A stretch of DNA of 64,000 nt. Origin: Candidatus Zipacnadia bacterium. GTDB lineage: Bacteria > Armatimonadota > Zipacnadia > Zipacnadales > Zipacnadaceae. Location: NCBI GenBank assembly GCA_029820565.1, contig JALGUR010000003.1, positions 67,304 to 131,303 on the forward strand, given 5' to 3'. Under the pieces are notes generated by a model that searched no databases, was not told where the DNA came from, and saw only the letters and a program-made list of their open reading frames with translations. Below, one piece after another: positions 4,223 to 60,665 of this stretch. A program made the position numbers and the translations under genes. Position 1 is the stretch's first letter; each line of letters opens with the position of its first letter.

Positions 4223-4273
4223 GGGGCACCCTTCGGCAGGCTCAGGACAGAGAGGATGCCCCTCCCACAATAG
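4223..4273. repeat. REP-like element, family GGCACCCTTCGGCAGGCTCAGGACAG...GATGCCCCTCCCAC
   Basis: Near-identical cores at 32283..32332, 44799..44843 (opposite orientation) and 59703..59800. Confidence 0.6.
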
Positions 4274-4415
4274 TTGGTGAATCTGGTGCTGTAGGAGCGG
4301 CATCTCTGCCGCGAGGGACTTCGCTGGACGGATGCCTCTCTGACGATAGATTTTCGCAACAGGCTTAGCAGTCAAACCAACGAATTGCAGCAGTAGATAA
4401 GGAGTTCACCGATAG

Positions 4416-9465: not shown

Positions 9466-10785
9466 ATGGCTAATATTATTGACATAATTGATGCTCGGGA
9501 CGATGGCGGTTCGGCACTGCAGGCGCTGCGCGAGCGGTCGGTGGTTGAAGTGGCGGGGGAAATTGAACAGGATGTGCGCCGCATAGTGGAGGATGTGCGG
9601 GCGCGGGGCGATGCGGCCTTGATTGAGTATGAGCAGCAGTTTGACTGCCCTACTTTGACCGCCGAGCGACTGCAGGTGACGGATGAGGAGATTCAGGCCG
9701 CCTATCAACAGGTCTCTGATAAGCAATTAGGGGCGCTGCGCCGGGCCAAAAACAATGTCTACGAGTTTCACCTGCGCGCTCGGCCCGCCTCGTGGCTGGA
9801 CAATTTTGAAGGCGTATGGTTGGGCCAGCGGATAACCCCGATTGAGTCGGTCGGCATCTACGTGCCGGCGAGAAGCGCCCCGCTGCCCTCCACGGTGTAT
9901 ATGTGTGCTATGCCGGCGCAAGTAGCCGGTGTGGAGCGTCTGGTGATATGCACACCACCGCGCCGGGACGGCTCGGTGGACCCGCTGACCCTACTGGCCG
10001 CGGCCGAGTGTGACGTGGATGAGATATATCGGGCCGGTGGGGCCCAGGCGATTGCGGCGCTGGCCTTTGGCACGGAAAGCATCGCAGCGGTCAATAAAAT
10101 CGTCGGTCCGGGCAATCCCTGGGTGACCCTGGCCAAAAAGTATGTTTTCGGCGTGGTGGGGATTGACTCGTTAGCCGGCCCCAGCGAGATCCTGGTCATT
10201 GCGGATGAGACTGCCCAGCCGGCCCTGGTGGCCGCTGACCTGCTGGCTCAAGCCGAGCACACCGGGGATAATACAGTGGTGCTGCTCACTGATGCCGAAA
10301 GTCTGGCTGAGGAAGTGGGCGAAGAGTTGAGCAGGCAGATTCAGACTTTGGACCGGGGCGAACTGATGCGCCAGTCACTGAACGAATATGGGGCGATTGT
10401 GTTAGTGCGGGATCTGCACCACGCGGCCCAGTTAGCCACTGAGATTGCCCCCGAACATCTGCAACTTATGGTAGCCGACCCCTTTGCCCTGCTGGCGGAA
10501 GTAGACAACGCCGGTTGCATCTGTCTGGGGCCGCTGTCGGCCGTGGCATTGGGCGATTATGCCGCTGGGCCCAGCCATGTCCTGCCCACTATGGGCACGG
10601 CGCGTTTTTCTTCGGGGCTGTCCGTGGATGATTTTGTGAAAAAATCCTCATTGATTTATGCTACCCCACCGGGCCTGCGGCGCGTAGCGGATGACGCTGT
10701 TGAACTGGCCGAGGCCGAGGGCCTCTCCGCGCACGCCCAGGCCATCCGGCGCCGGCAAAGTGATGATACAACGACTTGCAGGTAG
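9466..10785 (+). CDS. hisD: Histidinol dehydrogenase
   Basis: 439 aa with typical HisD motifs (GPGNPWVTLAKK, AGPSEILVIADE, QAEH). Confidence 0.95.
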   Translation: MANIIDIIDARDDGGSALQALRERSVVEVAGEIEQDVRRIVEDVRARGDAALIEYEQQFDCPTLTAERLQVTDEEIQAAYQQVSDKQLGALRRAKNNVYEFHLRARPASWLDNFEGVWLGQRITPIESVGIYVPARSAPLPSTVYMCAMPAQVAGVERLVICTPPRRDGSVDPLTLLAAAECDVDEIYRAGGAQAIAALAFGTESIAAVNKIVGPGNPWVTLAKKYVFGVVGIDSLAGPSEILVIADETAQPALVAADLLAQAEHTGDNTVVLLTDAESLAEEVGEELSRQIQTLDRGELMRQSLNEYGAIVLVRDLHHAAQLATEIAPEHLQLMVADPFALLAEVDNAGCICLGPLSAVALGDYAAGPSHVLPTMGTARFSSGLSVDDFVKKSSLIYATPPGLRRVADDAVELAEAEGLSAHAQAIRRRQSDDTTTCR

Positions 10786-10885
10786 GCGGCCCATCGTTTA
10801 TAATCTCACTATTGGAGACTGTTGCCAGAGGTAATTGAGGAACGGTAGAGTAAGTTGTGGAAGTTGAGGCCGTAGCGCGGTACTC

Positions 10886-10920
10886 ATATCGGGGCAGAGA
10901 TGCCCCTCCTACAAGTTGTT
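10886..10920. repeat. REP-like hairpin ATATCGGGGCAGAGATGCCCCTCCTAC
   Basis: Near-identical to 60787..60815. Stem GGGGCA/TGCCCC. Lies in the hisD-hisB intergenic region. Confidence 0.6.
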
Positions 10921-10983
10921 GCAACAGTCAATGCCGCTGCCAGTCTGTCCCCATCTCAGCAGTACCCAAGTAGGTGAGGCTAA

Positions 10984-11574
10984 ATGTCACTGCGAACTGC
11001 CCAACTATCACGCGAGACTGCGGAAACTAACATCGAAGTGCAGATCAACCTGGACGGCTCCGGTGAAGGTGAGATAGACACCGGGGTGGGCTTTTTTGAC
11101 CATATGCTCTCGCAACTCGCCAAGCACGGCCGCTTTGACCTGAATATAGAGGCACGGGGAGACCTGGAGGTTGACGCCCATCATACGGTGGAAGATGTAG
11201 GGATAATCCTCGGTCAAGCCCTCAAGGAAGCAGTCGGGGATAAGCAGGGAATGGTACGCTTCGGGGCGGCCAGTTGCCCGATGGATGAGGCGCTGGTGGC
11301 GGCGGCGATTGATTTTGGCGGCCGCGGGCACCTGGAATATGGGCTGAAACTGCCTGTGGCGAACGTCGGCGATTTTGACACCGAATTAGTCCGCGAATTC
11401 TTCATAGCGGTGGCCCACAACGCCGGTATGAGCCTTCACCTGACCCAGCAGGCCGGCATCAATACGCACCACATAATTGAGTCGGCCTTCAAATCCTTCG
11501 CCCGCGCTCTGGATGAGGCGACCAGATTGGACGAGAGGATTAGTGGGGTGCCGTCCACGAAGGGCCAACTGTAA
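10984..11574 (+). CDS. hisB: Imidazoleglycerol-phosphate dehydratase
   Basis: 196 aa. RETAETNIEVQINLDG and GFFDHML motifs. Confidence 0.95.
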   Translation: MSLRTAQLSRETAETNIEVQINLDGSGEGEIDTGVGFFDHMLSQLAKHGRFDLNIEARGDLEVDAHHTVEDVGIILGQALKEAVGDKQGMVRFGAASCPMDEALVAAAIDFGGRGHLEYGLKLPVANVGDFDTELVREFFIAVAHNAGMSLHLTQQAGINTHHIIESAFKSFARALDEATRLDERISGVPSTKGQL

Positions 11575-11649
11575 AGGGCGCTGCCATCCTGAGATTGTGG
11601 GAAGTGGCTGATATAAGGTAGTCCTCCCCCGTGTTATAGGTGGTTAGTT

Positions 11650-12261
11650 GTGATTGCACTGATTGACTATGGAATGGGCAATTTGGGCAGTGTGGATAAG
11701 GCACTGCGGCGGGTCGGCGGCGAGGTGCAGATGACCAGTGACCCGCAGGTCATCAGCCAGGCGGCGGGCGTAGTGCTGCCGGGCGTGGGGGCCTTTGACG
11801 ACTGTATGGACGGCCTCCACAAGCGTGGGCTGGCCGAGGCGTTGCGCCAGATTATCCGGGCCGGCAAACCGTTCCTGGGCATCTGCCTGGGCCTGCAAGT
11901 GCTGTTTGACCGTAGTGAAGAAGGCGAGAACGAAGGGTTGGGGATTATTCCCGGCGAAGTGGTGCGCTTCAAGCATAATCTGAAGATACCGCAGATTGGC
12001 TGGAACCAAATCAATGTCCGAAGCCAGGCACCACACCTGGCAGGAATCAAAGACGGGGTGTGGGTCTACTTCGTCCACTCCTACTACGTGGTGCCTGAGG
12101 ATGAGTCAGTGATCGCTACGACTACCGACTACGGCTACGAATTCTGCTCGTCAATCTGGCGCGAGAATATCTTCGCCTGCCAGTTCCACCCCGAAAAAAG
12201 CCAGGACGTAGGGCTGAAGATACTGGAGAACTTCACGCAGTTTCTTGGGCAGACGCATTAG
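11650..12261 (+). CDS. hisH: Imidazole glycerol phosphate synthase, glutaminase subunit
   Basis: GTG start. IALIDYGMGNLGSV, GICLGLQ (catalytic Cys) and FHPEKS motifs. Confidence 0.95.
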   Translation: MIALIDYGMGNLGSVDKALRRVGGEVQMTSDPQVISQAAGVVLPGVGAFDDCMDGLHKRGLAEALRQIIRAGKPFLGICLGLQVLFDRSEEGENEGLGIIPGEVVRFKHNLKIPQIGWNQINVRSQAPHLAGIKDGVWVYFVHSYYVVPEDESVIATTTDYGYEFCSSIWRENIFACQFHPEKSQDVGLKILENFTQFLGQTH

Positions 12262-12288
12262 CCCTACTTTCGAGGAGGCCCGGTAGTT

Positions 12289-13896
12289 ATGCAGATAAGA
12301 AACTTGATTAAGTCAGTGGGTGAGGCCGAAGTCCGCCACATCCTGGAGGCACTCTGTGAGGGGCGGTATCGGTTCCACGCCGGCGTCAGTCTTTCGCAGA
12401 TATTTGATCCTGAGGAGCCTGGGTGGACGAAAGAGGAGAAGCGCATGATCTTCCTGAGCAATGTCGACTGGCTGGTTACGGATGACTCGCCTGAGGAGAA
12501 GCCGTTGTTGGCGATAGAGGTAGACGGCCCCCATCACAAGGAGGGTGAACAGCAGCGGAAAGACCGAACGAAAGATGCCATATTCGCTAAGGCGGGACTG
12601 CCTTTGTTACGACACACTACTGAGCAGGTGGGGACCAAAGTAACAGAGCGAGAGATCCGAAGATGGGTTCTAATGCACTTCTGGCTACCTCCGGTCCTTG
12701 AGGCAAGCGACGATCTTGCGGTAGACCTGAAGAACCTATCCCTAGCGTTGGCCGGTGCCCTATCTGACGAGGTCCTCGAGTTTCTCAGAGTCAGAGAAAG
12801 GTTCAATAGCCTCTTTTGGCCGGACGTCTTTGCCGATGAAATACGCAGCGACCAAGCCATGGACAGGGTGCGTGAACTTGCGTCTTTCGCCTCAAAATAC
12901 ACGTTCCCGGATATACCTACACCGGAAGAGACACTTCGGGCGGACCGCGTAGTGAAAGAGATTGCTCTGCAGTTCCCAGATGGCACGACGTTCCGTAGCG
13001 CGGCACAATGTTTGAACACTGAGAGCCTGTACCCTAATTGGGTTGCCTTCCAGCGCGGAGCTATTGATGTCATGAGCCACGCCATCGAAGCATACGAGGA
13101 CGGTTCCTTTCGCCCCGATCCAACGGCGGAGTTTCCTCCTGAGTCTGACGAAGCAACGGAATATGACATCTGGCGGGACTTTTCCGTAGACTGGCGCCGG
13201 TCGGTGGAAGACTTTACCTACCAAAGACTCCGCTCAATACGCCAAGACCTCGAAGGGCGACGCAACGAGGTGTGGCCCGTCTCGTCGAAGCGCGAGTTCT
13301 TTTACCCACCTGTTGCTGGACTCCAGTGCGCCCACCGATATTGTTTCCAAACAACGGATGCGCCAGAGCAACGAGTCGTTTACGGAGTTGCAGAGGTATT
13401 TCGGGACGATGTGCGACAGAAAGGCGCCGCTTCGCAGCTTCAGCTCGCCCGTGACGTTGCGAAATACGACGCGCTGGTTCAGATACTTGACCTGGTGAAT
13501 CCAGAGGTGGATGTACGCACGACTATCGCGCCGGATATCGCCGTACGCGAGAGCGACACTGAGACTGACCGGCAGCGGAAAGCGCGCCATATTTCCGGCT
13601 CGGACTACGACTTGGTGACGATCACCAGCGAAATCAAGCTTACCAACCCCAAGCAGGAACAGATTCGGCTCATCGCCACCCAGAAGGTGGAAGGTGAGGT
13701 GACTGAGGCCAGCGATGAGGCCAAGTTCAGCAAGTTGAGCGAGGAAAGCTTCGGCCTTAATCCCACCAGCCGGATCAAGTGGGATGTGAAGCTATCTGGT
13801 GGCGAGGAAAAGAGCTTGACCTATACCTACCAGGTTTATGTGAAAGACAACTCTGCTGGCAAACCACAAAGGCATGATAATAATCCCTGCGATTGA
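12289..13896 (+). CDS. 535-aa protein: DUF2726-like (PD-(D/E)xK-type) N-terminal domain plus large uncharacterised C-terminal region
   Basis: N-terminus has the pattern SVGEAEV...VSLSQIF...NVDWLVTD...[11 protein letters not shown]...[19 protein letters not shown]. This matches DUF2726 as I recall it. GAGGAGG SD upstream. The stop overlaps the hisA start by 23 nt. Confidence 0.7.
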
Positions 13897-14599
13897 CCTA
13901 TCTGAGGGCCAGGTGGTGCGGTTGCGGCAGGGGGATATGCGGCAAAAGACCGTGTATTCCGATGACCCTGCGGCGCAGGCGCAACTATGGGAACAGCAAG
14001 GGGCCGAAGTTATCCACATTGTGGACCTGGATGGGGCGATAAGTGGCTACCCGGCTAATCTGGATGGTGTGGAAAACATTGTGGAAAACGTGGGAGTTCC
14101 TGTGGAAATGGGCGGCGGGCTGCGGACTGCCGATGACGTGGCACAAGTACTGGCGATAGGAGTGCGCTGGGCCATAATGGGGACGGCGGCCCTGCGTGAC
14201 CGGCCTGAGTTGGAGGAGGCATTGGACCGGTTCGGCGAACGGATTATTGTCGGCATTGACGCCCGCGACGGCAAAGTAACCGTAGAAGGGTGGACCGAAG
14301 GCAGCGAGATAGATGCGGTCTTCCTGGCGCGGCAGATGGAAGAATTGGGCGTGGAGCGGCTCATCTGCACCGATATTGCCACTGATGGGATGCTGCAAGG
14401 CCCTAACCTGGCGGCGATGCGGACCCTGGCCGAGGCAGTGCAGATCCCCATTATCGCCTCCGGCGGGGTGAGCACTACCCAGGACATCCGCGCGTTGCGG
14501 GAGCTGGAACCGTTAGGGGTAATTGGCTGCATCATCGGACGGGCGCTCTATGACGGGACACTGTCTTTAGGTGAGGCGCTGGCCGCCGCTTCACAGTAG
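13874..14599 (+). CDS. hisA: ProFAR isomerase
   Basis: [22 protein letters not shown]-terminus and typical (beta/alpha)8 HisA motifs. Confidence 0.95.
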
Positions 14600-14613
14600 T
14601 TGTGCCTGTGGGC

Positions 14614-14642
14614 TTGACATCTGAGGGAGGGCAATGTATAAT
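14614..14642 (+). promoter_or_regulatory. Consensus sigma70 promoter of the TA cassette
   Basis: TTGACA at 14614-14619, 17 nt, TATAAT at 14637-14642. Lies just after the hisA stop. ATG 14653 is 11 nt downstream of the -10, so the leader would be near-leaderless. Confidence 0.7.
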
Positions 14643-14652
14643 ATAGGAACGT

Positions 14653-15006
14653 ATGGGAGATAAAGCAATGGAAACGAGGGCAAGGATCAGTGACAAGCGG
14701 TGGCTCAGTCCCCCAGAGGCGGCGGAGTACCTGGGGATAGCAGTGAGCACCTTGTACCGGTGGCGCACGGAGGGGCGCATACGATTTTATCAATTCGGGG
14801 AACGCGTGAGCCGGATTAAGCGCGATGAACTGGATGGCCTGGCGCGACCTCAGCCCTCTGAGGGTACGGCGGCTCTGCAGGAATGGCAGCAGCAAGCCGA
14901 GACGCTTTTTCGCGAACTATATGAGCAATATGGTGTTGGCGACGATTCTGCCGAGGTCATCCGTGAAGCCCGTGAGCAGCGCTCTCGGCAACTGGGCGGG
15001 CGATAG
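14653..15006 (+). CDS. Excisionase/MerR-type HTH protein, putative antitoxin
   Basis: WLSPPEAAEYLGIAVSTLYRWRTEGRIRFYQFG is an HTH_17-like motif. An alternative start is ATG 14668 after GGGAGA. The gene ends 4 nt before the PIN gene. Confidence 0.75.
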   Translation: MGDKAMETRARISDKRWLSPPEAAEYLGIAVSTLYRWRTEGRIRFYQFGERVSRIKRDELDGLARPQPSEGTAALQEWQQQAETLFRELYEQYGVGDDSAEVIREAREQRSRQLGGR

Positions 15007-15009
15007 CGC

Positions 15010-15456
15010 ATGGCGGAGCGCATCTGTCTGGACGCCAGTGTGGCCGCCAAATGGGTCTTTCCGGAGGTCCACTCCGAAGAGGCGAGGGAAATCCAGACGG
15101 ATGTAGCCGATGGGCGCACCCAGATAGTAGTGCCGGACAGTTTCTTTATTGAATGCGTCAGTGTGGTCTATCATAAACATCAGCAGAGCCTGGCCGATAT
15201 GGAGCAGGCCCAGGCGGCCCTCGGTGTACTGCGGCAGGTCCCGGCCAACGTGACGGCGATCCGCGACGTCTCTCACCAGACCATGACCCTGGCCGAACGT
15301 CTAAACATCACTGTCTGGGACGCTGCCTATCTGGCTGTCGCTGAACATCACAACTGCGACTTGTGGACCGCCGATAAAAAACTTGCCCGGCAGACACAAC
15401 CGCACTTTGATTGGGTGAAGCTGCTGGGCACTGATGAATGGACTGAAGCGAGGTGA
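15010..15456 (+). CDS. vapC: PIN-domain ribonuclease toxin (VapC-like)
   Basis: Carries the typical acidic residues (ICLDASV..., [22 protein letters not shown]). 148 aa. Tightly coupled to the upstream HTH gene. Confidence 0.85.
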
Positions 15457-15463
15457 CGTTATT

Positions 15464-16246
15464 ATGTTAGCCAAGGTGGACGAAGGTCGCGTGGTTAAAG
15501 GTATAAAGTATGTGGACCATGTGGACGCCGGCGACCCGGTGGAGCAGGCCCAAGAATATGACCGCCAGGGGGCCGATGAACTGGTCTTTCTGGACATCAC
15601 CGCCTCTGTGGAAGGGCGGGAGATAGTGCTGGATATGGTCAGGCGGGCGGCGGAGTGTATCTTTATACCGCTGACCGTCGGGGGAGGTATCCGGACTGTT
15701 GAGGATATTCGCCAGGTTCTTAAGGCGGGCGCGGACAAGGTCTCTATGATGACGGCAGCGGTGCAGAATCGGGACCTGGTCAATGAGGCAGCAGGGCGCT
15801 TTGGCAACCAGTGCATTGTGGTCGCTATTGACGCCCAGCGTGTGCCGCGCGAGGGACGGGATGACTCGGATTTGGGGTATGCTCCCGACGAAGAGATTGA
15901 ATGGAAAGTATGGACGCACGGGGGGCATAAACCTACTGAGGTCGACGCACTGCAATGGGCCGGGGAGGCGGCCGCGCGTGGGGCGGGGGAGTTGCTGGTT
16001 ACCTCAATGGATGCCGATGGAACCAGGGCGGGCTATGATATAGAACTGCTGCGGCGCATCTCGCAAGAAGTGAGCATTCCGGTCATTGCCTCGGGGGGCG
16101 CGGGTAACATTGACCATATGTATGAGGCGCTCACCGCCGGCCAGGCGGATGCGGTGTTAGCGGCCAGCATCTTCCATTTCCGCCAATACACCGTCGGGCA
16201 GGTCAAAGAAGAATTGGCTGAGCGGGGCATTACCGTGCGCCGGTAG
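15464..16246 (+). CDS. hisF: Imidazole glycerol phosphate synthase cyclase subunit, atypical N-terminus
   Basis: ATG 15464 lies 8 nt after GAGGTGA. The protein is HisF-like throughout ([30 protein letters not shown]). It starts [13 protein letters not shown] and lacks the canonical RIIPCLD segment. Confidence 0.88.
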
Positions 16247-16251
16247 AGAGA

Positions 16252-16638
16252 GTGATTATGATGGACTTGTCGGCCCTGGAGTTTGATCAAAAAGGCTTGA
16301 TACCCGCAGTTATCTGTGACCATCAGAGCAACGAAGTGCTGATGGTAGGTTATATGAACGAGGAGGCGGTCCAGCGTACTGTGGCGAGCGGCCAGACTTG
16401 CTTCTGGAGCCGTTCGCGACAGCAGTTTTGGGTAAAAGGTGAGCACTCAGGGCACAAGCAGTACGTCAAGTGGATTCGTTTAGACTGTGATGGCGACTGC
16501 CTGCTAATCGGCGTGGAACAGGTGATAGGCGCTTGCCACCTGGGCTATCGCAGCTGCTTCTTCCGCGAACTGCGGGAGGACCGCTGGGAAGTAGTTGCTG
16601 ATAAGGTCTTTGACCCGGATGGAGTTTATGAGAACTGA
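16252..16638 (+). CDS. hisI: Phosphoribosyl-AMP cyclohydrolase
   Basis: GLIPAVICD..., [17 protein letters not shown] and CDGDCLL motifs. HisI domain only, no HisE. Confidence 0.92.
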
Positions 16639-28132: not shown

Positions 28133-28663
28133 CTATTCCTCTTTCAGGAAATTATATGTCCTTTTGCCTTTTTTCAATAGCCTAAACAATCCGCCATTTG
28201 TCAGCCGCGATACTATCTTATTTTCCTTCAGATGGTGGTCAGTGAAGGATAGGATTCCATCAGGCTTTAATACTCGATGTAACTCTTGTAGTACTCCATT
28301 CGGGTCACCTAAGTCGTGGAGTATATCGTATAATAAGGCTACATCTACGGCATTATCTGGCAATCCAGTTTTGCAATCAGAGCAAATGGTCTCCACATTG
28401 GTCAGTTGCTTTCTGGAAGCGATGCGCTGCACCATCTCGATGGCCAGTGGATGGATGTCCAGGGCATAGATTTTCCCTGACTCGCCCACCAATTCTGCCA
28501 GGGGGATGATATAAGTGCCGGGGCCGCAGCCATAGTCCAGCACATGAAACCCCGCCTCTATCCCTGCCTCTTGCAATATATTCATGCGAGGTAAGAAAAA
28601 GTCGCGAAACCTATAGCACAAAGACATAAGCCTAAAATGAAGATTGGGTTCAGGTTTATCCAT
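28133..28663 (-). CDS. Class I SAM-dependent methyltransferase
   Basis: VLDYGCGPGTY motif I. 176 aa. Confidence 0.85.
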   Translation of the reverse strand: MDKPEPNLHFRLMSLCYRFRDFFLPRMNILQEAGIEAGFHVLDYGCGPGTYIIPLAELVGESGKIYALDIHPLAIEMVQRIASRKQLTNVETICSDCKTGLPDNAVDVALLYDILHDLGDPNGVLQELHRVLKPDGILSFTDHHLKENKIVSRLTNGGLFRLLKKGKRTYNFLKEE

Positions 28664-29005: not shown

Positions 29006-29791
29006 CTACTCTGCCGCTATGGCTGTGGCAGTAATGGTAATCTTGATCTTCCGGCCACAGTCGGGGCAGGTGATAATGAAACTGAAACTGCCCTCACCAA
29101 TTGTGGCCGGTTCGCCGGCCACCGTAACCGGGGGTATAGTGATGTGCACTTCCTCGGCGGGTGGCGTAACGACCTCAGCAGGGGCCTCAGGCGGCGCTTC
29201 AGCGGGAGCCTCAGCCGGGACCTCGGCGGGAGGGGCCTCCACTGGCTCAGGTGGCAGGGGAATAATCTCAACTGCCTCGGTGGGAGGTACTTCCTCACCG
29301 ATGACTATCTGGGCAATAAGATTATCGGCTGAGAAGTCAGCCCCGGCCAGGGGGAAAGCATGTATGGACGGTCCGCCTTCAATGCTGACCTCACTGGCGT
29401 GTAGCAGCCAGGTAGGTTGGCCGACTATGGTCTCCCCCGCCTGGGTAGTGACGGTGAGCTGCTGAATCTTCCACTGCGGCTGCTCCTCGGTGCCTTCATT
29501 GGCCCAGGTGGCCTCCACCGAGGCCAGGTCAGCGGCGGCGACACTATGCTCGGTGTCGTCTATCTGGATGGTGAAGGCGCCGCCGTCAGGCAGCAGTGTA
29601 CCGATGCCCGCGCCCGGGACTACGCCCAATTCCGCAATCCGGATTAGCCCACTGAGGGCCTGGCCGCTGCGCAGGTACACCGTACCCATAAGCCGCAGGG
29701 CTTCCTCCTCGGTCTGGGCACAGACACTGACCGCCACGCCCACCAGCAACACCACCAGCATCACTACAGTCGTCTTTCTCATAACTCTCAC
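29006..29791 (-). CDS. Secreted hypothetical protein with P/E/A-rich linker and C-terminal CPDC motif
   Basis: Signal peptide MRKTTVVMLVVLLVGVAVSVCA. PEA repeats. No family recognised. Confidence 0.55.
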   Translation of the reverse strand: MRVMRKTTVVMLVVLLVGVAVSVCAQTEEEALRLMGTVYLRSGQALSGLIRIAELGVVPGAGIGTLLPDGGAFTIQIDDTEHSVAAADLASVEATWANEGTEEQPQWKIQQLTVTTQAGETIVGQPTWLLHASEVSIEGGPSIHAFPLAGADFSADNLIAQIVIGEEVPPTEAVEIIPLPPEPVEAPPAEVPAEAPAEAPPEAPAEVVTPPAEEVHITIPPVTVAGEPATIGEGSFSFIITCPDCGRKIKITITATAIAAE

Positions 29792-29823: not shown

Positions 29824-30834
29824 CTAAACCAATTTACCGCGGCGCATACGCAGCATTTCCACAAAGGCTTCCACGCGCAGTTTGTTGCGGCCGTCCAAGG
29901 GCGCGGGGCGGTCGCCCTCCAGGCTCAGTACCGGGCAGCTAATTCGCGGCTTTATCAATAAGTCCTCTATCTGCCGGAAGCAGAATGTCTGAGTGTAGTG
30001 AATTACGCCGTCCAAACGGCGCAATTGCACCTGCCGATTTACATCAGTAATGCGCCCGAAGACATCGTACGGATAAGTGTAGCGCTGATATTGGGTTACC
30101 AGGTCTTCGTCCAGTCCATCTATCATGGTAAACTGACGCTGGGTTTCGTTGAATACCACCTGCGCGCCCAGGCTTGCGGTGAACTCATACAGGTCGGTTA
30201 TTATGGGCGGCACGCCCATAAAGCCTAACCTCAGTGGTGGATTTGCCGCGGGCCGCCGCGCGGCCTCTTCGTAAAACTGCTTGGCCTCCTTATAGAACGA
30301 TTCTACCTCACCGTTGAAGTCACTGCAACAGACCTGATAGTAATGGTTCTCGGCTCCGGCAACTTTTCCCTCCTTCCAGGTCAACTCGTCAATCTTAGCG
30401 CACAGTTGGCGGACGGGCCGCAGTTCCTCGCGAGTCTGCTCGACTTGCTCCCAATTCACGCCAAAGTAGTCCATAAAGCGCTGAATCTGCGCTTGAAGCA
30501 GTTGCCGGTCGCGATCGTAAGGATAGGCAAAGGGGATAATGTCCACGCCGGCGGCCTGTAAGGTCTCCATCAGGGCATGGGTCTGGCTGCAATCGCCCTG
30601 AGTTACGGCTACCACCTGCTTAATGCCTCGGCGCAGCGCTACCGCGTATATCCCCTTAATCCAGCCACAGGCGTTGCGGGGATAGCCATCAAGTTCCGCC
30701 TGGGCGACCAGAGACTCGGGCTCGGGGTCGGTAATGAAGACGTTGTTCAGGTCAACCGGTGTCGCGCCGGCTGCCAGGAGTACCTCCACCGGAATTGTCG
30801 TCGTCAGACCTACTTCAGACATCTTGGGGCTCAC
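29824..30834 (-). CDS. 2-hydroxyacyl-CoA dehydratase / benzoyl-CoA reductase (HgdB/BcrC-like) family protein, single short subunit
   Basis: N-terminus GLTTTIPVEVLLAAGATPVDL and the overall pattern are typical of the HGD-D family (from memory). The start GTG 30834 overlaps the radical-SAM gene stop (GTGA); ATG 30822 is an alternative. Confidence 0.78.
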   Translation of the reverse strand: MSPKMSEVGLTTTIPVEVLLAAGATPVDLNNVFITDPEPESLVAQAELDGYPRNACGWIKGIYAVALRRGIKQVVAVTQGDCSQTHALMETLQAAGVDIIPFAYPYDRDRQLLQAQIQRFMDYFGVNWEQVEQTREELRPVRQLCAKIDELTWKEGKVAGAENHYYQVCCSDFNGEVESFYKEAKQFYEEAARRPAANPPLRLGFMGVPPIITDLYEFTASLGAQVVFNETQRQFTMIDGLDEDLVTQYQRYTYPYDVFGRITDVNRQVQLRRLDGVIHYTQTFCFRQIEDLLIKPRISCPVLSLEGDRPAPLDGRNKLRVEAFVEMLRMRRGKLV

Positions 30835-31649
30835 TTAACCTGCAATATTCGGTGGCACTGCGGAATTATGCGCACATCGTCTAATAATTCGCTGCACAAC
30901 TGCTGCCACTGCAATAGCGTCGCGGAGTCGGGCGGCCGGCAGTCGCCAACTGGTGTGACCGGCTGCAGCACGACCAGTGTGTCTCTGTCTACCTGAGTGA
31001 TAATGCGGCAAGCCTCCAACAATTCCTTCGTAGTCACACTATCGGTGAGTACAATCTTCACAAAACAGTTGGTCTGCTGGGCAACTTGCAGGAATTCACC
31101 AAACACCACGGCTGGCACTGGCTCAACCATAGTAGAAGGCAACTTGAAATCCATCGCCACCCAGTCAATGTTATTTATAACCGCGTTGAGCGCTTGAGCC
31201 AAATGTCCGGCGGTCTCCAGATAGACCTTATGACCTGCCTGATGCAGACGCTCAGACAGGGCGGCTACGAAGTCTGGATAAAGCAGCGGCTCACCGCCGG
31301 TCAGGCTGATGGAATGACAAGTCTCGCCGCGTGTAGTGACCAATTCTTCTACCAATCCCCGCAGAGCTTCCACACTGAGCGGATTATCGCATCGGGTGAA
31401 TTCTTCGCTCCCAGGGACTTGCTGAACGTGGCACGGCCCGCAAACGGCGCGTGCCGCCGGTGTGTCGCAATACCGGCAGGTCAAGTCGCAGCCGCGGAAT
31501 CTGATGAAGACCTGGCACACCCCCAGCAGCGGCCCTTCCCCCTGAACGGAGCAAAAGACTTCGTAGATGGGTGCCGTCAGCCGCGCCACTCTACGGCACT
31601 CCCCTGACCTTGTGGCAGGCCGCCTCACAGGATTCCATCTCCGCGACAT
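30831..31649 (-). CDS. QueE-like radical SAM protein
   Basis: YEVFCSVQGEG and FIRFRGCDLTCRYCDTP (CxxxCxxC) motifs. The likely true start is GTG 31589, which has GGGGAG 9 nt upstream and lies 1 nt after the upstream stop. Confidence 0.85.
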   Translation of the reverse strand: MSRRWNPVRRPATRSGECRRVARLTAPIYEVFCSVQGEGPLLGVCQVFIRFRGCDLTCRYCDTPAARAVCGPCHVQQVPGSEEFTRCDNPLSVEALRGLVEELVTTRGETCHSISLTGGEPLLYPDFVAALSERLHQAGHKVYLETAGHLAQALNAVINNIDWVAMDFKLPSTMVEPVPAVVFGEFLQVAQQTNCFVKIVLTDSVTTKELLEACRIITQVDRDTLVVLQPVTPVGDCRPPDSATLLQWQQLCSELLDDVRIIPQCHRILQVK

Positions 31650-32148
31650 AGGCTGCCATTATCTCGGGTGCTATCTCTTCAGGGACTATTCCCAACTCGT
31701 CGAGCCCGATGGCGGGCACGGGGGCATCAGTGGGGTCAATATTCAAGGCAAAATGAATAAGCGTAGAGACTGGCGAAGCCGTAGCAATTGATACCGAGAG
31801 TTTGCGGTCTTCAACAAATAGATCATCACCACTGCGGCGCAGGGGTAAGTCAGGCTGGCGGTCGCGCAGTATCTCGCCGGTCAGGCAAATCAGCAGCCGC
31901 TGGCGCAAGATAGCCTGCGGGAGGCGGTCATCAAAATGCTCGGCAATGAAGTGTAGCATCAACGCGGCACGAATGCCTACTCCTCGCTGCACATCCTCCT
32001 GGTCAACCATATTTTCCAGCGCGACGCGGCAAGGCCCGATGAAACCGACGATGGCGTGACCGTCCAGGCCTATGGTCTGGGCAATCCAACCGGAGCGCAG
32101 TTCCTTGCCGGTGTAGGGTATCTGGTTTTCGGCCATTTGCCAGTGCAT
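31591..32148 (-). CDS. DUF366-like protein
   Basis: ORF 31591..32262. The N-terminal 38 codons overlap REP hairpins, so ATG 32148 is preferred. The pattern YTGKELRSGWI...MLHFIAEHF...GDDLFV...KLSVSIAT...IHFALN matches my memory of DUF366. Confidence 0.62.
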   Translation of the reverse strand: MHWQMAENQIPYTGKELRSGWIAQTIGLDGHAIVGFIGPCRVALENMVDQEDVQRGVGIRAALMLHFIAEHFDDRLPQAILRQRLLICLTGEILRDRQPDLPLRRSGDDLFVEDRKLSVSIATASPVSTLIHFALNIDPTDAPVPAIGLDELGIVPEEIAPEIMAAYVAEMESCEAACHKVRGVP

Positions 32149-32282
32149 GTCTCGGCAATCACGCACCCTCCTGTAGGAGGGCCATCCCTGGCCCGAGAGC
32201 GGTCCCGCCTTCGCTGTGAAAGGAGCTTCGGCGGGCAAGCGCGGCAAGGATGCCGCTCCCACAGCAGGAGAAGGAATGGGTC

Positions 32283-32332
32283 GGGGTACCCTTGCACAAG
32301 CTCAGGACAGGCAGGATGCTCCTCCCACAGCG
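32283..32332. repeat. REP-like element, same family as 4223..4273
   Basis: GGGGTACCCTTGCACAAGCTCAGGACAGGCAGGATGCTCCTCCCACAGCG. Further related hairpins lie at 32164-32195 and 32241-32268. Confidence 0.6.
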
Positions 32333-32358
32333 TAAGTTAATGCGTCATGCAAAGCGGG

Positions 32359-36728: not shown

Positions 36729-36817
36729 GGCTATGGGGCCCGCAGGCGGGCAGGCGACGGCGTGGGCTACGCTGCTGTGGGAGGGCCATCCTTGGTCCGA
36801 CTGCGGTGGTGGCACAT

Positions 36818-36954
36818 AACTGCAGTCGCGACAGGAATGTCGCTCCTACGAAGTTATAGCAACAACTGCAGTCGCGACAGGAATGTCGCTCCTACGAGGT
36901 TATAGCAACAACTGCAGTCGCGACAGGAATGTCGCTCCTACGAGGTTATAGCAA
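36818..36954. repeat. Tandem repeat, 3 x 46 bp
   Basis: Units begin at 36818, 36864 and 36910: AACTGCAGTCGCGACAGGAATGTCGCTCCTACGA(A/G)GTTATAGCAAC. Each contains the GCGACA/TGTCGC hairpin. There are no unique spacers. Confidence 0.85.
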
Positions 36955-36956
36955 AA

Positions 36957-37151
36957 TGTAGGGGCGAATGTACCTAAGCACATCCGCCTGCGTCTGGTCA
37001 GAGCAAGGATGCCCTTCCCACTGTGGATGATCGGTGGGCCGGGCTCGGTGCGCCGCCGTGACCTTGACGCGTAGGCGAGGTTCTCTAACCTCGCTCCGTT
37101 GTAAGTATTGACCAAGGGGGCAGGAGTTGGCTGCAATTTCCGCCCCTACAG
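36957..37151. repeat. ~195-bp element bounded by TGTAGGGGCG...CGCCCCTACAG inverted termini (copy Z)
   Basis: Same termini as copies X and Y. Internal hairpins (GGCGAATGT/ACATCCGCC, GGCGAGGTT/AACCTCGC). Confidence 0.55.
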
Positions 37152-44843: not shown

Positions 44844-44933
44844 GCTTGTCCGCCGAAGCTGGATGAGCAGCGCAGGCGCGATGGCTGATGAAGCCGAGTA
44901 CTCAAAACACACACCAAAGAGGAGTTGAGCAAA

Positions 44934-45584
44934 ATGCTGAGTAAGCGACGTGGTTTTACGTTGATCGAGCTGCTGGTGGTGATTGCGATAATCGCAATCC
45001 TGGCAGCGATCCTGTTCCCGGTCTTTGCCCGGGCGCGGGAGAAGGCGCGGCAGACCAGTTGTCTGAGCAACAGCAAGCAGATAATGCTGGGCTGCTTGAT
45101 GTACGCCAGTGACCATGACGACTATGTGCCGTTCCTCAATGGGCATCCGTACTACTGGTGGAACTTCGGTTGGCCTTGCATCGAACCCTACATCAGGAAC
45201 AACCAGATAATTTACTGTCCCTCGTTCGGGGGAGACCGGGTTGCTTATTGTAACCCCGAGTACCATCATCCCCGGACCCCTGACCAATGGAACGAGAGCT
45301 GGGTGCTAGCCTATAAATTCGCCGACTACCAGCACCCCGCCGAAAACGGTTGGTTATTCGAGGGGCACAATGATCCAATGACCGGCGGAAACGGTCCCGA
45401 GCTAGTCTGCCTGTTCTGCTGGCACTGGGGTGAGTGGTACTGCATGATATGCGAGCGCCACAACGGGGGCGGCAACATCGCCTTCGTTGACGGGCACGCC
45501 AAATGGCAAGATGCGCAGGCGTTGTACGATGCGGGGATGGCCGACGAGGAATGGGCCAGGCGGATGTATGGCCACGACTTCTGA
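44934..45584 (+). CDS. Prepilin-type N-terminal cleavage/methylation domain protein, DUF1559 family
   Basis: [44 protein letters not shown]-terminal [13 protein letters not shown] motif. The ORF is open from TTG 44925. Confidence 0.88.
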
Positions 45585-59957: not shown

Positions 59958-60665
59958 TTAGCCTGAATACCCAGAGTGCCCCCACAGAATCTGGTCAGCC
60001 TGGTACTCGGCATTGGCAGGGTCGCCCGTCTCATACCCGTCGTAGAAGGAGGCCTGGCTCAGCCACTTGGCGTGGCCATCTATAAAGGCATGGTTGCCGC
60101 CCCCATTGTGGTCGTTGCAGACGCATAAGGTCGAACTGGCGGACGGTGGATAACCCCCACACCATGGGCACATCACAAAGGACATCCCCCACCCCCAACC
60201 GGTACCGCTCCAGTGACCCAAGCTCTGGGTATCTGCTTCAAACAGCCAGGCGGTCTGGCCCGGATAGTCGTAGGCGTCGAATAGACGCGTCGGACCCTCA
60301 CCTGCCGACCGGTTGGCGTAGTCATAGTACTGGCGGCCATACGTGGCACTCAGCCCCCGCGCATGGTCCGGACTGAGAACCGGGCATACGAAAAGCTGGT
60401 CGTTTCTCACGTACGGCAGCAGGCCGCCGTAGATTGTAGTATACGGTGGGAAGTGAACGTGGGGCATGTGCCCATCGTAGTCACTGGCGTACATCAGCCC
60501 GGCCAGAGCGATTTGCTTGATGTTGCTCAAGCACGCAGTCTGGCGGGCTTTCGCCCGCGCCCTTGCGAACACGGGAAACAGAATGGCCGCCAGGATTGCG
60601 ATAATCGCAATCACCACCAGCAATTCTATCAACGTAAATCCACGTCGCTTGCTAATCATTGTCAT
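59958..60665 (-). CDS. Prepilin-type N-terminal cleavage/methylation domain protein, DUF1559 family (second copy)
   Basis: [58 protein letters not shown] motif. Confidence 0.88.

Follow-up and report, generated by a model that had tools for sequence, protein, structure and literature searches.

A DUF366-QueE-HgdB-like gene trio of Candidatus Zipacnadia in the context of preQ0 biosynthesis

A stretch of 64,000 nucleotides from a Candidatus Zipacnadia bacterium (assembly GCA_029820565.1, contig JALGUR010000003.1, positions 67,304 to 131,303; hereafter the window) carries on its minus strand three closely packed genes, which encode a DUF366 protein, a radical S-adenosylmethionine (SAM) protein and a single-subunit HgdB-like Fe-S protein of the HGD-D family. 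Zipacnadia is a class of Armatimonadota. The locus raises the question of whether the trio represents an undescribed radical enzyme system, as an earlier note based on the sequence alone had proposed, or a variant of a known pathway. Since DUF366 and the radical SAM protein, which has all QueE signature residues, map to a known preQ0 (7-cyano-7-deazaguanine) pathway context, the proposal of a free-standing new radical system has to be abandoned; what the three genes form is a preQ0 module to which two uncharacterised accessory proteins are added. More specifically, the evidence leans, on balance, towards a lineage-specific (Armatimonadota, class Zipacnadia-like) module for the biosynthesis of preQ0, the 7-deazaguanine precursor of the tRNA base queuosine. 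The data thus favour the second guess of the same note, namely that a deazapurine-like metabolite is made or modified here. The three genes are the following:

31591..32148, minus strand: DUF366 (PF04017) protein, 185 aa from ATG 32148
30831..31589, minus strand: QueE (7-carboxy-7-deazaguanine synthase) of a class outside the curated hidden Markov models (HMMs), 252 aa from GTG 31589
29824..30834, minus strand: single-subunit HgdB-like (HGD-D) Fe-S protein, 336 aa from GTG 30834 or 332 aa from ATG 30822

The three domain calls of the earlier note are confirmed by Pfam: the first protein matches PF04017 with 195 bits (cut-off 29.9), the second Radical_SAM (PF04055, 50.6 bits) together with Fer4_12, and the third PF06050 with 123.7 bits. 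At their longest extent, the open reading frames (ORFs) in the list of the window span 31591-32262, 30831-31649 and 29824-30834, all on the minus strand. For DUF366, ATG 32148 is a more likely start than the longest-ORF GTG 32262, because in the long ORF the Pfam match does not start before residue 39 and the homologues measure 181-187 aa; the N-terminal extension of the long ORF enters a dispersed repeat. A single base separates the DUF366 stop codon TAG (31593-31591) from GTG 31589, a start of the radical SAM gene that is backed by a 252-aa database protein with 100% identity (P0121). The chaining of the genes described previously is present at this junction, and at the next one the stop codon TGA shares bases with GTG 30834 (GTGA, a 4-nt overlap); however, the HGD-D gene called on the same contig encodes 332 aa (P0241/P0518), which implies a start at ATG 30822 and an 8-nt gap instead of the overlap. 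The trio is tightly packed whichever start applies. With either length, the HgdB-like gene encodes a single short subunit (332-336 aa), as previously described.

The three families also occur together elsewhere: the DUF366-queE-HGD-D unit is found at 24 species-level loci and at additional metagenome loci, some of them with other flanking genes, so that the trio proves to be a conserved, co-inherited unit. The nearest species-level relatives are Candidatus Zipacnadia metagenome-assembled genomes, with 74% identity for DUF366 and 82% for HGD-D.

QueE and DUF366 in the preQ0 pathway

QueE converts 6-carboxy-tetrahydropterin into 7-carboxy-7-deazaguanine (CDG) by radical SAM chemistry. Judged by its sequence, the middle gene of the trio is a genuine QueE, since its product contains all QueE signature motifs and its homologues are embedded in queD-queC-DUF366-queE-folE operons. 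Both motifs reported earlier, the YEVFCSVQGEG N-terminus and the CDLTCRYC cluster motif, were found, and C34, C38 and C41 of the latter are invariant in 18 diverse members. In the same 18-member alignment ExFxSxQGEG, R30, D42-T43, TGGEP, LET.G and the C-terminal PQxH[KR] are invariant or nearly so, and in a HMMER alignment the signature residues line up with Q13, E15, R27, D50 and T51 of B. multivorans QueE, which are substrate- and Mg-binding. The best PDB matches are the three solved QueE types (4NJG, 6NHL and 5TGS), and homologues with about 48% identity carry the QueE name at NCBI and JGI.

The genomic surroundings of the homologues point in the same direction. Operons of the queD-queC-DUF366-queE-folE type are found in Desulfofundulus, Pelotomaculum and other Bacillota, while Thermaerobacter has the order queD-queC-DUF366-queE-folE2-methyltransferase; complete que operons contain no QueE candidate besides the radical SAM protein. 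Furthermore, a QueC::QueE fusion is encoded on a metagenome contig (L090). The linkage to queC, queD and folE is thus provided by the homologous loci, namely by 42 of the 80 species loci, by the Bacillota operons that contain folE and by the fusion.

The 80 species-level loci, collected by a DUF366 profile search, also place DUF366 among the genes of this pathway, since it lies next to queC in 42 of them and next to a QueE-type radical SAM gene in 62. The arrangements observed among the 80 loci are:

queD-queC-DUF366-queE: 23 loci
queC-DUF366-queE: 6 loci
queC-DUF366, mostly Melainabacteria: 8 loci
DUF366-queE-HGD-D: 24 loci
queD-queC-DUF366-queE-HGD-D: 2 loci
DUF366 alone, mostly Planctomycetota: 10 loci

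Across phyla, queC and queE are constantly accompanied by DUF366. At one locus (L042:2828-6137) DUF366 is followed by a non-QueE radical SAM/SPASM protein (477 aa) and then by an HGD-D orthologue, which shows that DUF366 can also accompany a radical SAM enzyme other than QueE. The only cluster with the QueC::QueE fusion is without DUF366; although this is a single case, it fits a bridging role of DUF366 between the two enzymes.

The only solved relative of DUF366 is PDB 2DDZ from Pyrococcus (E 5e-29, TM-score 0.92). In a Foldseek search, the AlphaFold2 model (mean pLDDT 96) retrieves 2DDZ first and then the catalytic domains of biotin/lipoate protein ligases, with E ~2e-6, probability 1.0 and TM 0.5-0.63 for BirA, LplA and LipL1. 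DUF366 is accordingly modelled with a fold of the biotin/lipoate-protein-ligase type. In an hhalign comparison with BirA, the invariant GDDL...RKLS of DUF366 is tentatively placed on the catalytic-lysine strand NDLYLQDRKLA of BirA, with K116 opposite K183. QueE releases CDG and ammonia, and QueC consumes both; from this relation it can be proposed that DUF366 either acts on the carboxylate intermediate CDG, by binding or adenylating it, or physically couples QueE to QueC. CDG is the obvious candidate for the carboxylate substrate. The searchable literature contains nothing on the function of DUF366, which was also sought as PF04017, COG2029, PH0223, 2DDZ and IPR007162, and the main text of a 2026 preprint on the QueC family mentions neither DUF366 nor the dehydratases. 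A family with a solved structure since 2007 (2DDZ) and no function is now tied to the context of 7-deazaguanine synthesis.

The HgdB-like protein and the activase question

The third protein belongs to a compact and strongly conserved family: 1.84 billion proteins yielded 367 representatives at E<=1e-3, of which about 12 are fused to a BcrAD_BadFG ATPase. Its AlphaFold2 model (mean pLDDT 92) retrieves HadC, BzdO and DCCP in Foldseek (TM 0.75-0.79). The invariant cysteines are C56, C82 and C285 only, which suggests a single [4Fe-4S] cluster with an open site and not a seven-Cys double cubane. The neighbourhood of the gene was surveyed in 80 HGD-D-anchored metagenome loci, whose orthologues are all 46-58% identical to the window protein; in about 45 of them an activase is adjacent. 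On sequence grounds these proteins form one very conserved, three-cysteine, presumably single-cubane orthologous group, usually accompanied by a BcrAD/HgdC-type ATPase and repeatedly positioned immediately behind queE. No second HGD-D-like ORF, and hence no heterodimer partner, was found in the window, as the earlier note had stated, in the 5.6 kb that precede its first position or in the Armatimonadota loci; a DUF2229/HGD-D partner occurs only in loci of the RtcA type.

At least six architectures connect HGD-D with queE; they include, besides the trio itself and L014, queD-queC-DUF366-queE-HGD-D-activase-tyrS (L055, where the activase passes the TIGR00241 cut-off), queD-queE-HGD-D (L135, L154 and L167), the fusion-bearing L090 and the inverted order HGD-D-activase-queD-queC-DUF366-queE (L168). 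This variety, together with a trio that is kept with entirely different flanks in L088, indicates that the link between HGD-D and queE is recurrent and independent of the architecture. HGD-D might instead be a syntenic passenger, its position a matter of gene order inherited in Armatimonadota and without any functional link to queE or DUF366. The synteny pyk-trio-hyp-tyrS is indeed kept as a block in Armatimonadota, and most orthologues outside this phylum do not lie beside que genes. This explanation is nevertheless quite improbable in view of the different flanks in L088, the recurrence of the queE-HGD-D adjacency in unrelated architectures (L090 and L168) and the overlapping or abutting start and stop codons of the trio.

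In L090 (8646-11815), queD is followed by QueC::QueE (452 aa), HGD-D::BcrAD_BadFG (604 aa) and then by class I fumarase/mesaconase genes. Other contexts of HGD-D lie apart from queuosine genes. One has the order murI...HGD-D-activase...rph-rdgB. Another, glmE-mal-HGD-D-activase-fumarase (mesaconase), is found in L122, L131, L149, L166 and L105 and belongs to glutamate fermentation, which involves an adenosylcobalamin radical enzyme. Two further arrangements have no activase nearby. In L141 (5495-10027; also L127 and L151), overlapping genes encode a radical SAM/SPASM protein (459 aa), a DUF2229/HGD-D-like partner (369 aa), HGD-D and RtcA, the HGD-D orthologue of L141 being 56% identical to the window protein. 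In L134 (6402-8987) and L157 (6359-9008; also L169 and L170), a PflX-like radical SAM protein (~320 aa), an ApaH/PrpE-like metallophosphoesterase and HGD-D are tightly packed.

With respect to function, HGD-D may be an Fe-S protein of low potential that acts as redox partner to QueE and that is primed by an activase from another part of this genome; it would keep the QueE cluster reduced or perform a reductive step on a 7-deazaguanine intermediate, and in other lineages it seems to do service for radical SAM enzymes other than QueE. A different role is also conceivable, in which DUF366 and QueE act as proposed above and HGD-D catalyses a later queuosine step, either as a non-orthologous replacement of QueF (ATP/activase-driven conversion of the preQ0 nitrile into preQ1) or in place of QueG/QueH (epoxyqueuosine reduction). 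In B. subtilis-type queCDEF operons, queF holds the position that HGD-D occupies in the queD-queC-DUF366-queE-HGD-D(-activase) clusters of L014 and L055, and no QueF homologue was detected with a Pfam-validated seed in the window or in any of the 170 loci; a catalytic late-step role would explain both this queF-like position and the absence of QueF. Moreover, tRNA/RNA genes (tyrS, rph and rtcA) recur near HGD-D, and by sequence it is closest to DCCP, a protein that acts with an ATP-dependent reductase to reduce acetylene at its triple bond and that has a seven-Cys motif and a double-cubane [8Fe-9S] cluster (PMC7317905). On the other hand, HGD-D has three conserved cysteines and not the seven-Cys motif, no preQ1 riboswitch accompanies the genes, and equally similar orthologues reside in operons with unrelated radical SAM enzymes and in glutamate-fermentation or housekeeping contexts. 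A late catalytic step is thus unlikely, albeit a serious contender, and the redox-partner role is favoured over it; this role explains the association of HGD-D with several radical SAM families at uniform sequence similarity.

The original proposal was that the radical SAM protein may start the chemistry in place of an archerase. An HMM built from six fused activase domains (E<=1) detected no BcrAD_BadFG-like ORF in the 64-kb window, in agreement with the earlier observation, and the possibility that an activase sits just outside the window was checked over the 5.6 kb beyond its start, where none was found. The simplest reading is that the activase is encoded elsewhere in the genome. In activase-less lineages, however, the radical SAM protein could start the chemistry on the HgdB-like protein and so replace the ATP-driven archerase, for example by hydrogen abstraction, which is how glycyl-radical activases act. 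Besides the absence of an activase from these 64 + 5.6 kb, the distribution of neighbours is compatible with such a replacement: among the 37 HGD-D-anchored loci whose flanks cover at least 2.5 kb, both a radical SAM gene and an activase are adjacent in 0, a radical SAM gene only in 7, an activase only in 23 and neither in 7 (Fisher p = 3e-4, not phylogeny-corrected). Three radical SAM families (QueE-type, PflX-like and SPASM) share overlapping-gene operons with HGD-D, and the QueE-type and PflX-like ones are related to organic-radical activases.

Several observations nevertheless make this replacement improbable. None of the substrate- and Mg-binding residues of QueE is lost from the radical SAM protein, for which complete que operons offer no rival QueE candidate, while queE, HGD-D and an activase stand together in L055, L090 and L168, and HGD-D orthologues of 46-58% identity are adjacent or fused to BcrAD/HgdC-type ATPases in some 45 loci. 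When 43 activase-linked HGD-D proteins are compared with 34 queE-linked, activase-less ones, the same residue is conserved (>=90%) at 89 common positions, whereas only 8 and 5 positions are group-specific, all of them conservative changes. The exclusivity of radical SAM and activase adjacency may also reflect lineage-specific gene order. The replacement idea is weakened by the loci with all three genes and by the common positions, and the exclusive adjacency still speaks for it.

A more general proposal, which we regard as tentative and well short of even chances, is that radical SAM enzymes (QueE here; PflX-like and SPASM proteins elsewhere) have a dedicated partner in the three-Cys HgdB-like orthogroup and that DUF366 is an unrecognised ligase-fold component of preQ0 synthesis. 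On one reading HGD-D would be a low-potential reductase that is charged by ATP and an archerase and in turn primes the clusters of radical SAM enzymes; on the other, it would be an HgdB-like enzyme, and a radical SAM protein could take the place of an archerase in starting its radical chemistry. A combined literature search retrieved no paper linking queuosine with HGD/BCR terms, and no published account was found of a link between DUF366 and the HgdB-like/activase orthogroup, on the one side, and 7-deazaguanine synthesis and radical SAM enzymes, on the other.

A number of results weigh against the assignment of the trio to preQ0 synthesis, with HGD-D as redox partner and DUF366 as ligase-type component. 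The window itself contains no queC, queD, folE, tgt or queF, so that the pathway assignment rests on homologous loci, and neither the window nor any of 11 que-type loci yielded a riboswitch, of the preQ1 type or of another. The best NCBIfam matches of the radical SAM protein are the five QueE models, but the top score (TIGR03963) is 71.6 bits against a cut-off of 260. Since the operon-embedded homologues likewise reach only 60-80 bits against the cut-offs of 200-300 of all five models, these scores point to an unmodelled QueE class and not to a different enzyme; the trio protein would then represent a sixth class, and the current curated HMMs leave an annotation gap. For DUF366, the hhalign match to BirA has E 5e-4 and a probability of only 32%, and no Pfam ligase match appears even at E<=10 in 25 members. 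As regards HGD-D, most HGD-D/activase pairs lie outside queuosine contexts (murI...rph-rdgB and glmE-mal...fumarase), no activase was found within +-10 kb of 27 related loci or in the window, and we know of no characterised relative in which the HGD-D component is an electron shuttle and not a substrate-converting enzyme.

If the HgdB-like protein does exchange radicals or electrons with radical SAM enzymes, two large anaerobic radical-enzyme families would be connected, with a bearing on the way in which organisms that lack flavodoxin reduce their radical SAM clusters. If HGD-D replaces QueF or QueG/H instead, a pathway hole in anaerobes would be filled. A single-subunit HgdB-like/activase pair that is widespread in anaerobes is tied here to the biosynthesis of 7-deazaguanine, from which queuosine and archaeosine derive, and to radical SAM enzymes.

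Neighbouring genes and intergenic repeats

The trio is bordered by a further gene and a repeat-bearing spacer:

29006..29791, minus strand: conserved signal-peptide protein, 261 aa, with a Pro/Ala/Glu-rich tract, directly after HGD-D
32149..32358, no strand assigned: intergenic region between pyk and DUF366, 210 nt, with dispersed REP-like repeats

Homologues of the 261-aa protein (117-330 bits) directly follow HGD-D and precede tyrS in nearly all Armatimonadota loci. The protein carries a C-terminal CPDCG motif in addition to its Pro/Ala/Glu-rich repeat tract and matches no Pfam, NCBIfam or PADLOC model. The gap between the HGD-D stop codon and this gene measures only ~35 nt and has no terminator-like site, and the two genes are probably co-transcribed, although the role of the 261-aa protein is possibly unrelated to the trio. 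It was considered as a degenerate activase and rejected, having a signal peptide and no similarity to the activase HMM.

The methyltransferase gene (28133-28663, minus strand) and tyrS, located downstream of the trio, are preceded by a strong promoter-like site of their own (11/12 matches) and probably constitute a separate transcription unit. Because of this site, and because it occurs in no related locus except L007, the methyltransferase was discarded as a member of the system. A small class I SAM methyltransferase closes the Thermaerobacter preQ0 cluster after folE2 (L005:8818-10231); the similar protein encoded before tyrS in the window and in L007 matches it with 78 bits, orthology not being established.

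Genes of the preQ0 pathway are known to be reused for DNA modification and natural products (PMC5699537). Given this precedent, and a methyltransferase nearby both here and in the Thermaerobacter cluster, the trio could make another deazapurine- or pterin-derived small molecule (a secondary metabolite or a DNA modification) and not tRNA-bound queuosine precursors. Such a product is very improbable: no DpdA/TGT-like, PADLOC or biosynthetic tailoring gene lies nearby, the neighbours (pyk and tyrS) are housekeeping genes, and the methyltransferase, besides standing behind a separate promoter-like site, is missing from most of the related loci. No match to a PADLOC defence-system model was obtained.

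In the spacer between pyk and DUF366, two 19-nt direct copies and one 18-nt inverted pair are located at 32212-32332, the fold z-score of the spacer is -2.7, and no Rfam family matches. The 19-nt element, AGGATGCYSCTCCCACAGC, is present in the window in 6 copies against 0.12 expected; it forms intergenic pairs on both strands, at 4253-4306, 32247-32331 and 36774-37024. Owing to this dispersal and copy number, it is reasonable, from the sequence, to regard the element as a repetitive extragenic palindromic (REP)-like repeat family of this genome. The three REP hairpins formerly placed at 32164-32332 hold as a dispersed repeat, whereas the structure consists of the two copies and one inverted pair described above.

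Elsewhere in the window, a his operon (hisD, hisB, hisH, hisA, hisF and hisI; 9466-16635, plus strand) is interrupted by two insertions, a 535-aa DUF2726 gene (12289-13893) and an HTH/PIN toxin-antitoxin-like pair (14653-15453). The genes at 44925-45581 (plus strand) and 59961-60665 (minus strand) have in common that they encode a type IV pilin-like prepilin N-terminus.

Comparison with known systems

The closest known system for the middle gene is QueE with the queCDEF preQ0 operon. The two share the CxxxCxxC cluster, ExFxSxQGEG, the D-T Mg site, TGGEP and PQxH[KR], and homologues of the trio QueE are clustered with queD, queC and folE/folE2. In contrast, the trio QueE scores below the curated cut-offs (60-80 bits vs 200-300), lies apart from queC and queD in this genome, and is accompanied by DUF366 and HGD-D instead of queF. 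The glycyl-radical activases PflA and NrdG have the same small QueE/NrdG-type radical SAM fold and embody the idea of a radical SAM protein paired with the enzyme that it activates; the trio protein differs from them in keeping the small-molecule-binding residues of QueE, and HGD-D has no glycyl-radical domain or motif. DUF366 resembles the catalytic domain of BirA/LplA in its fold, and its GDDL...RKLS may correspond to the catalytic-lysine strand of BirA, but it is only 185 aa long and has neither a Pfam-level match nor the GRGRxGR loop.

Of the DCCP/DCCP-R pair (6ENO and 7YYL), DCCP has the same single-subunit HgdB-like fold as HGD-D (TM 0.78) and is its best PDB sequence match; the pairing of HGD-D orthologues with a BcrAD/HgdC-type ATPase likewise recalls a two-component ATP-driven reductase. 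HGD-D is, however, ~90 residues shorter than DCCP, has three conserved cysteines in place of the seven-Cys motif, reaches only 37 bits with NF040772 (cut-off 350) and has no activase nearby in the window. With HadBC/HgdAB (activator HadI/HgdC) and class I BzdNO it has in common the Pfam family, the HadC/BzdO fold (Foldseek E ~1e-13) and the three-Cys cluster motif, and the activase of its orthologues matches TIGR00241. Unlike these enzymes, the trio HGD-D is found without a heterodimer partner and without CoA-transferase or acyl-CoA genes nearby, and its context is that of tRNA-base biosynthesis and radical SAM enzymes.

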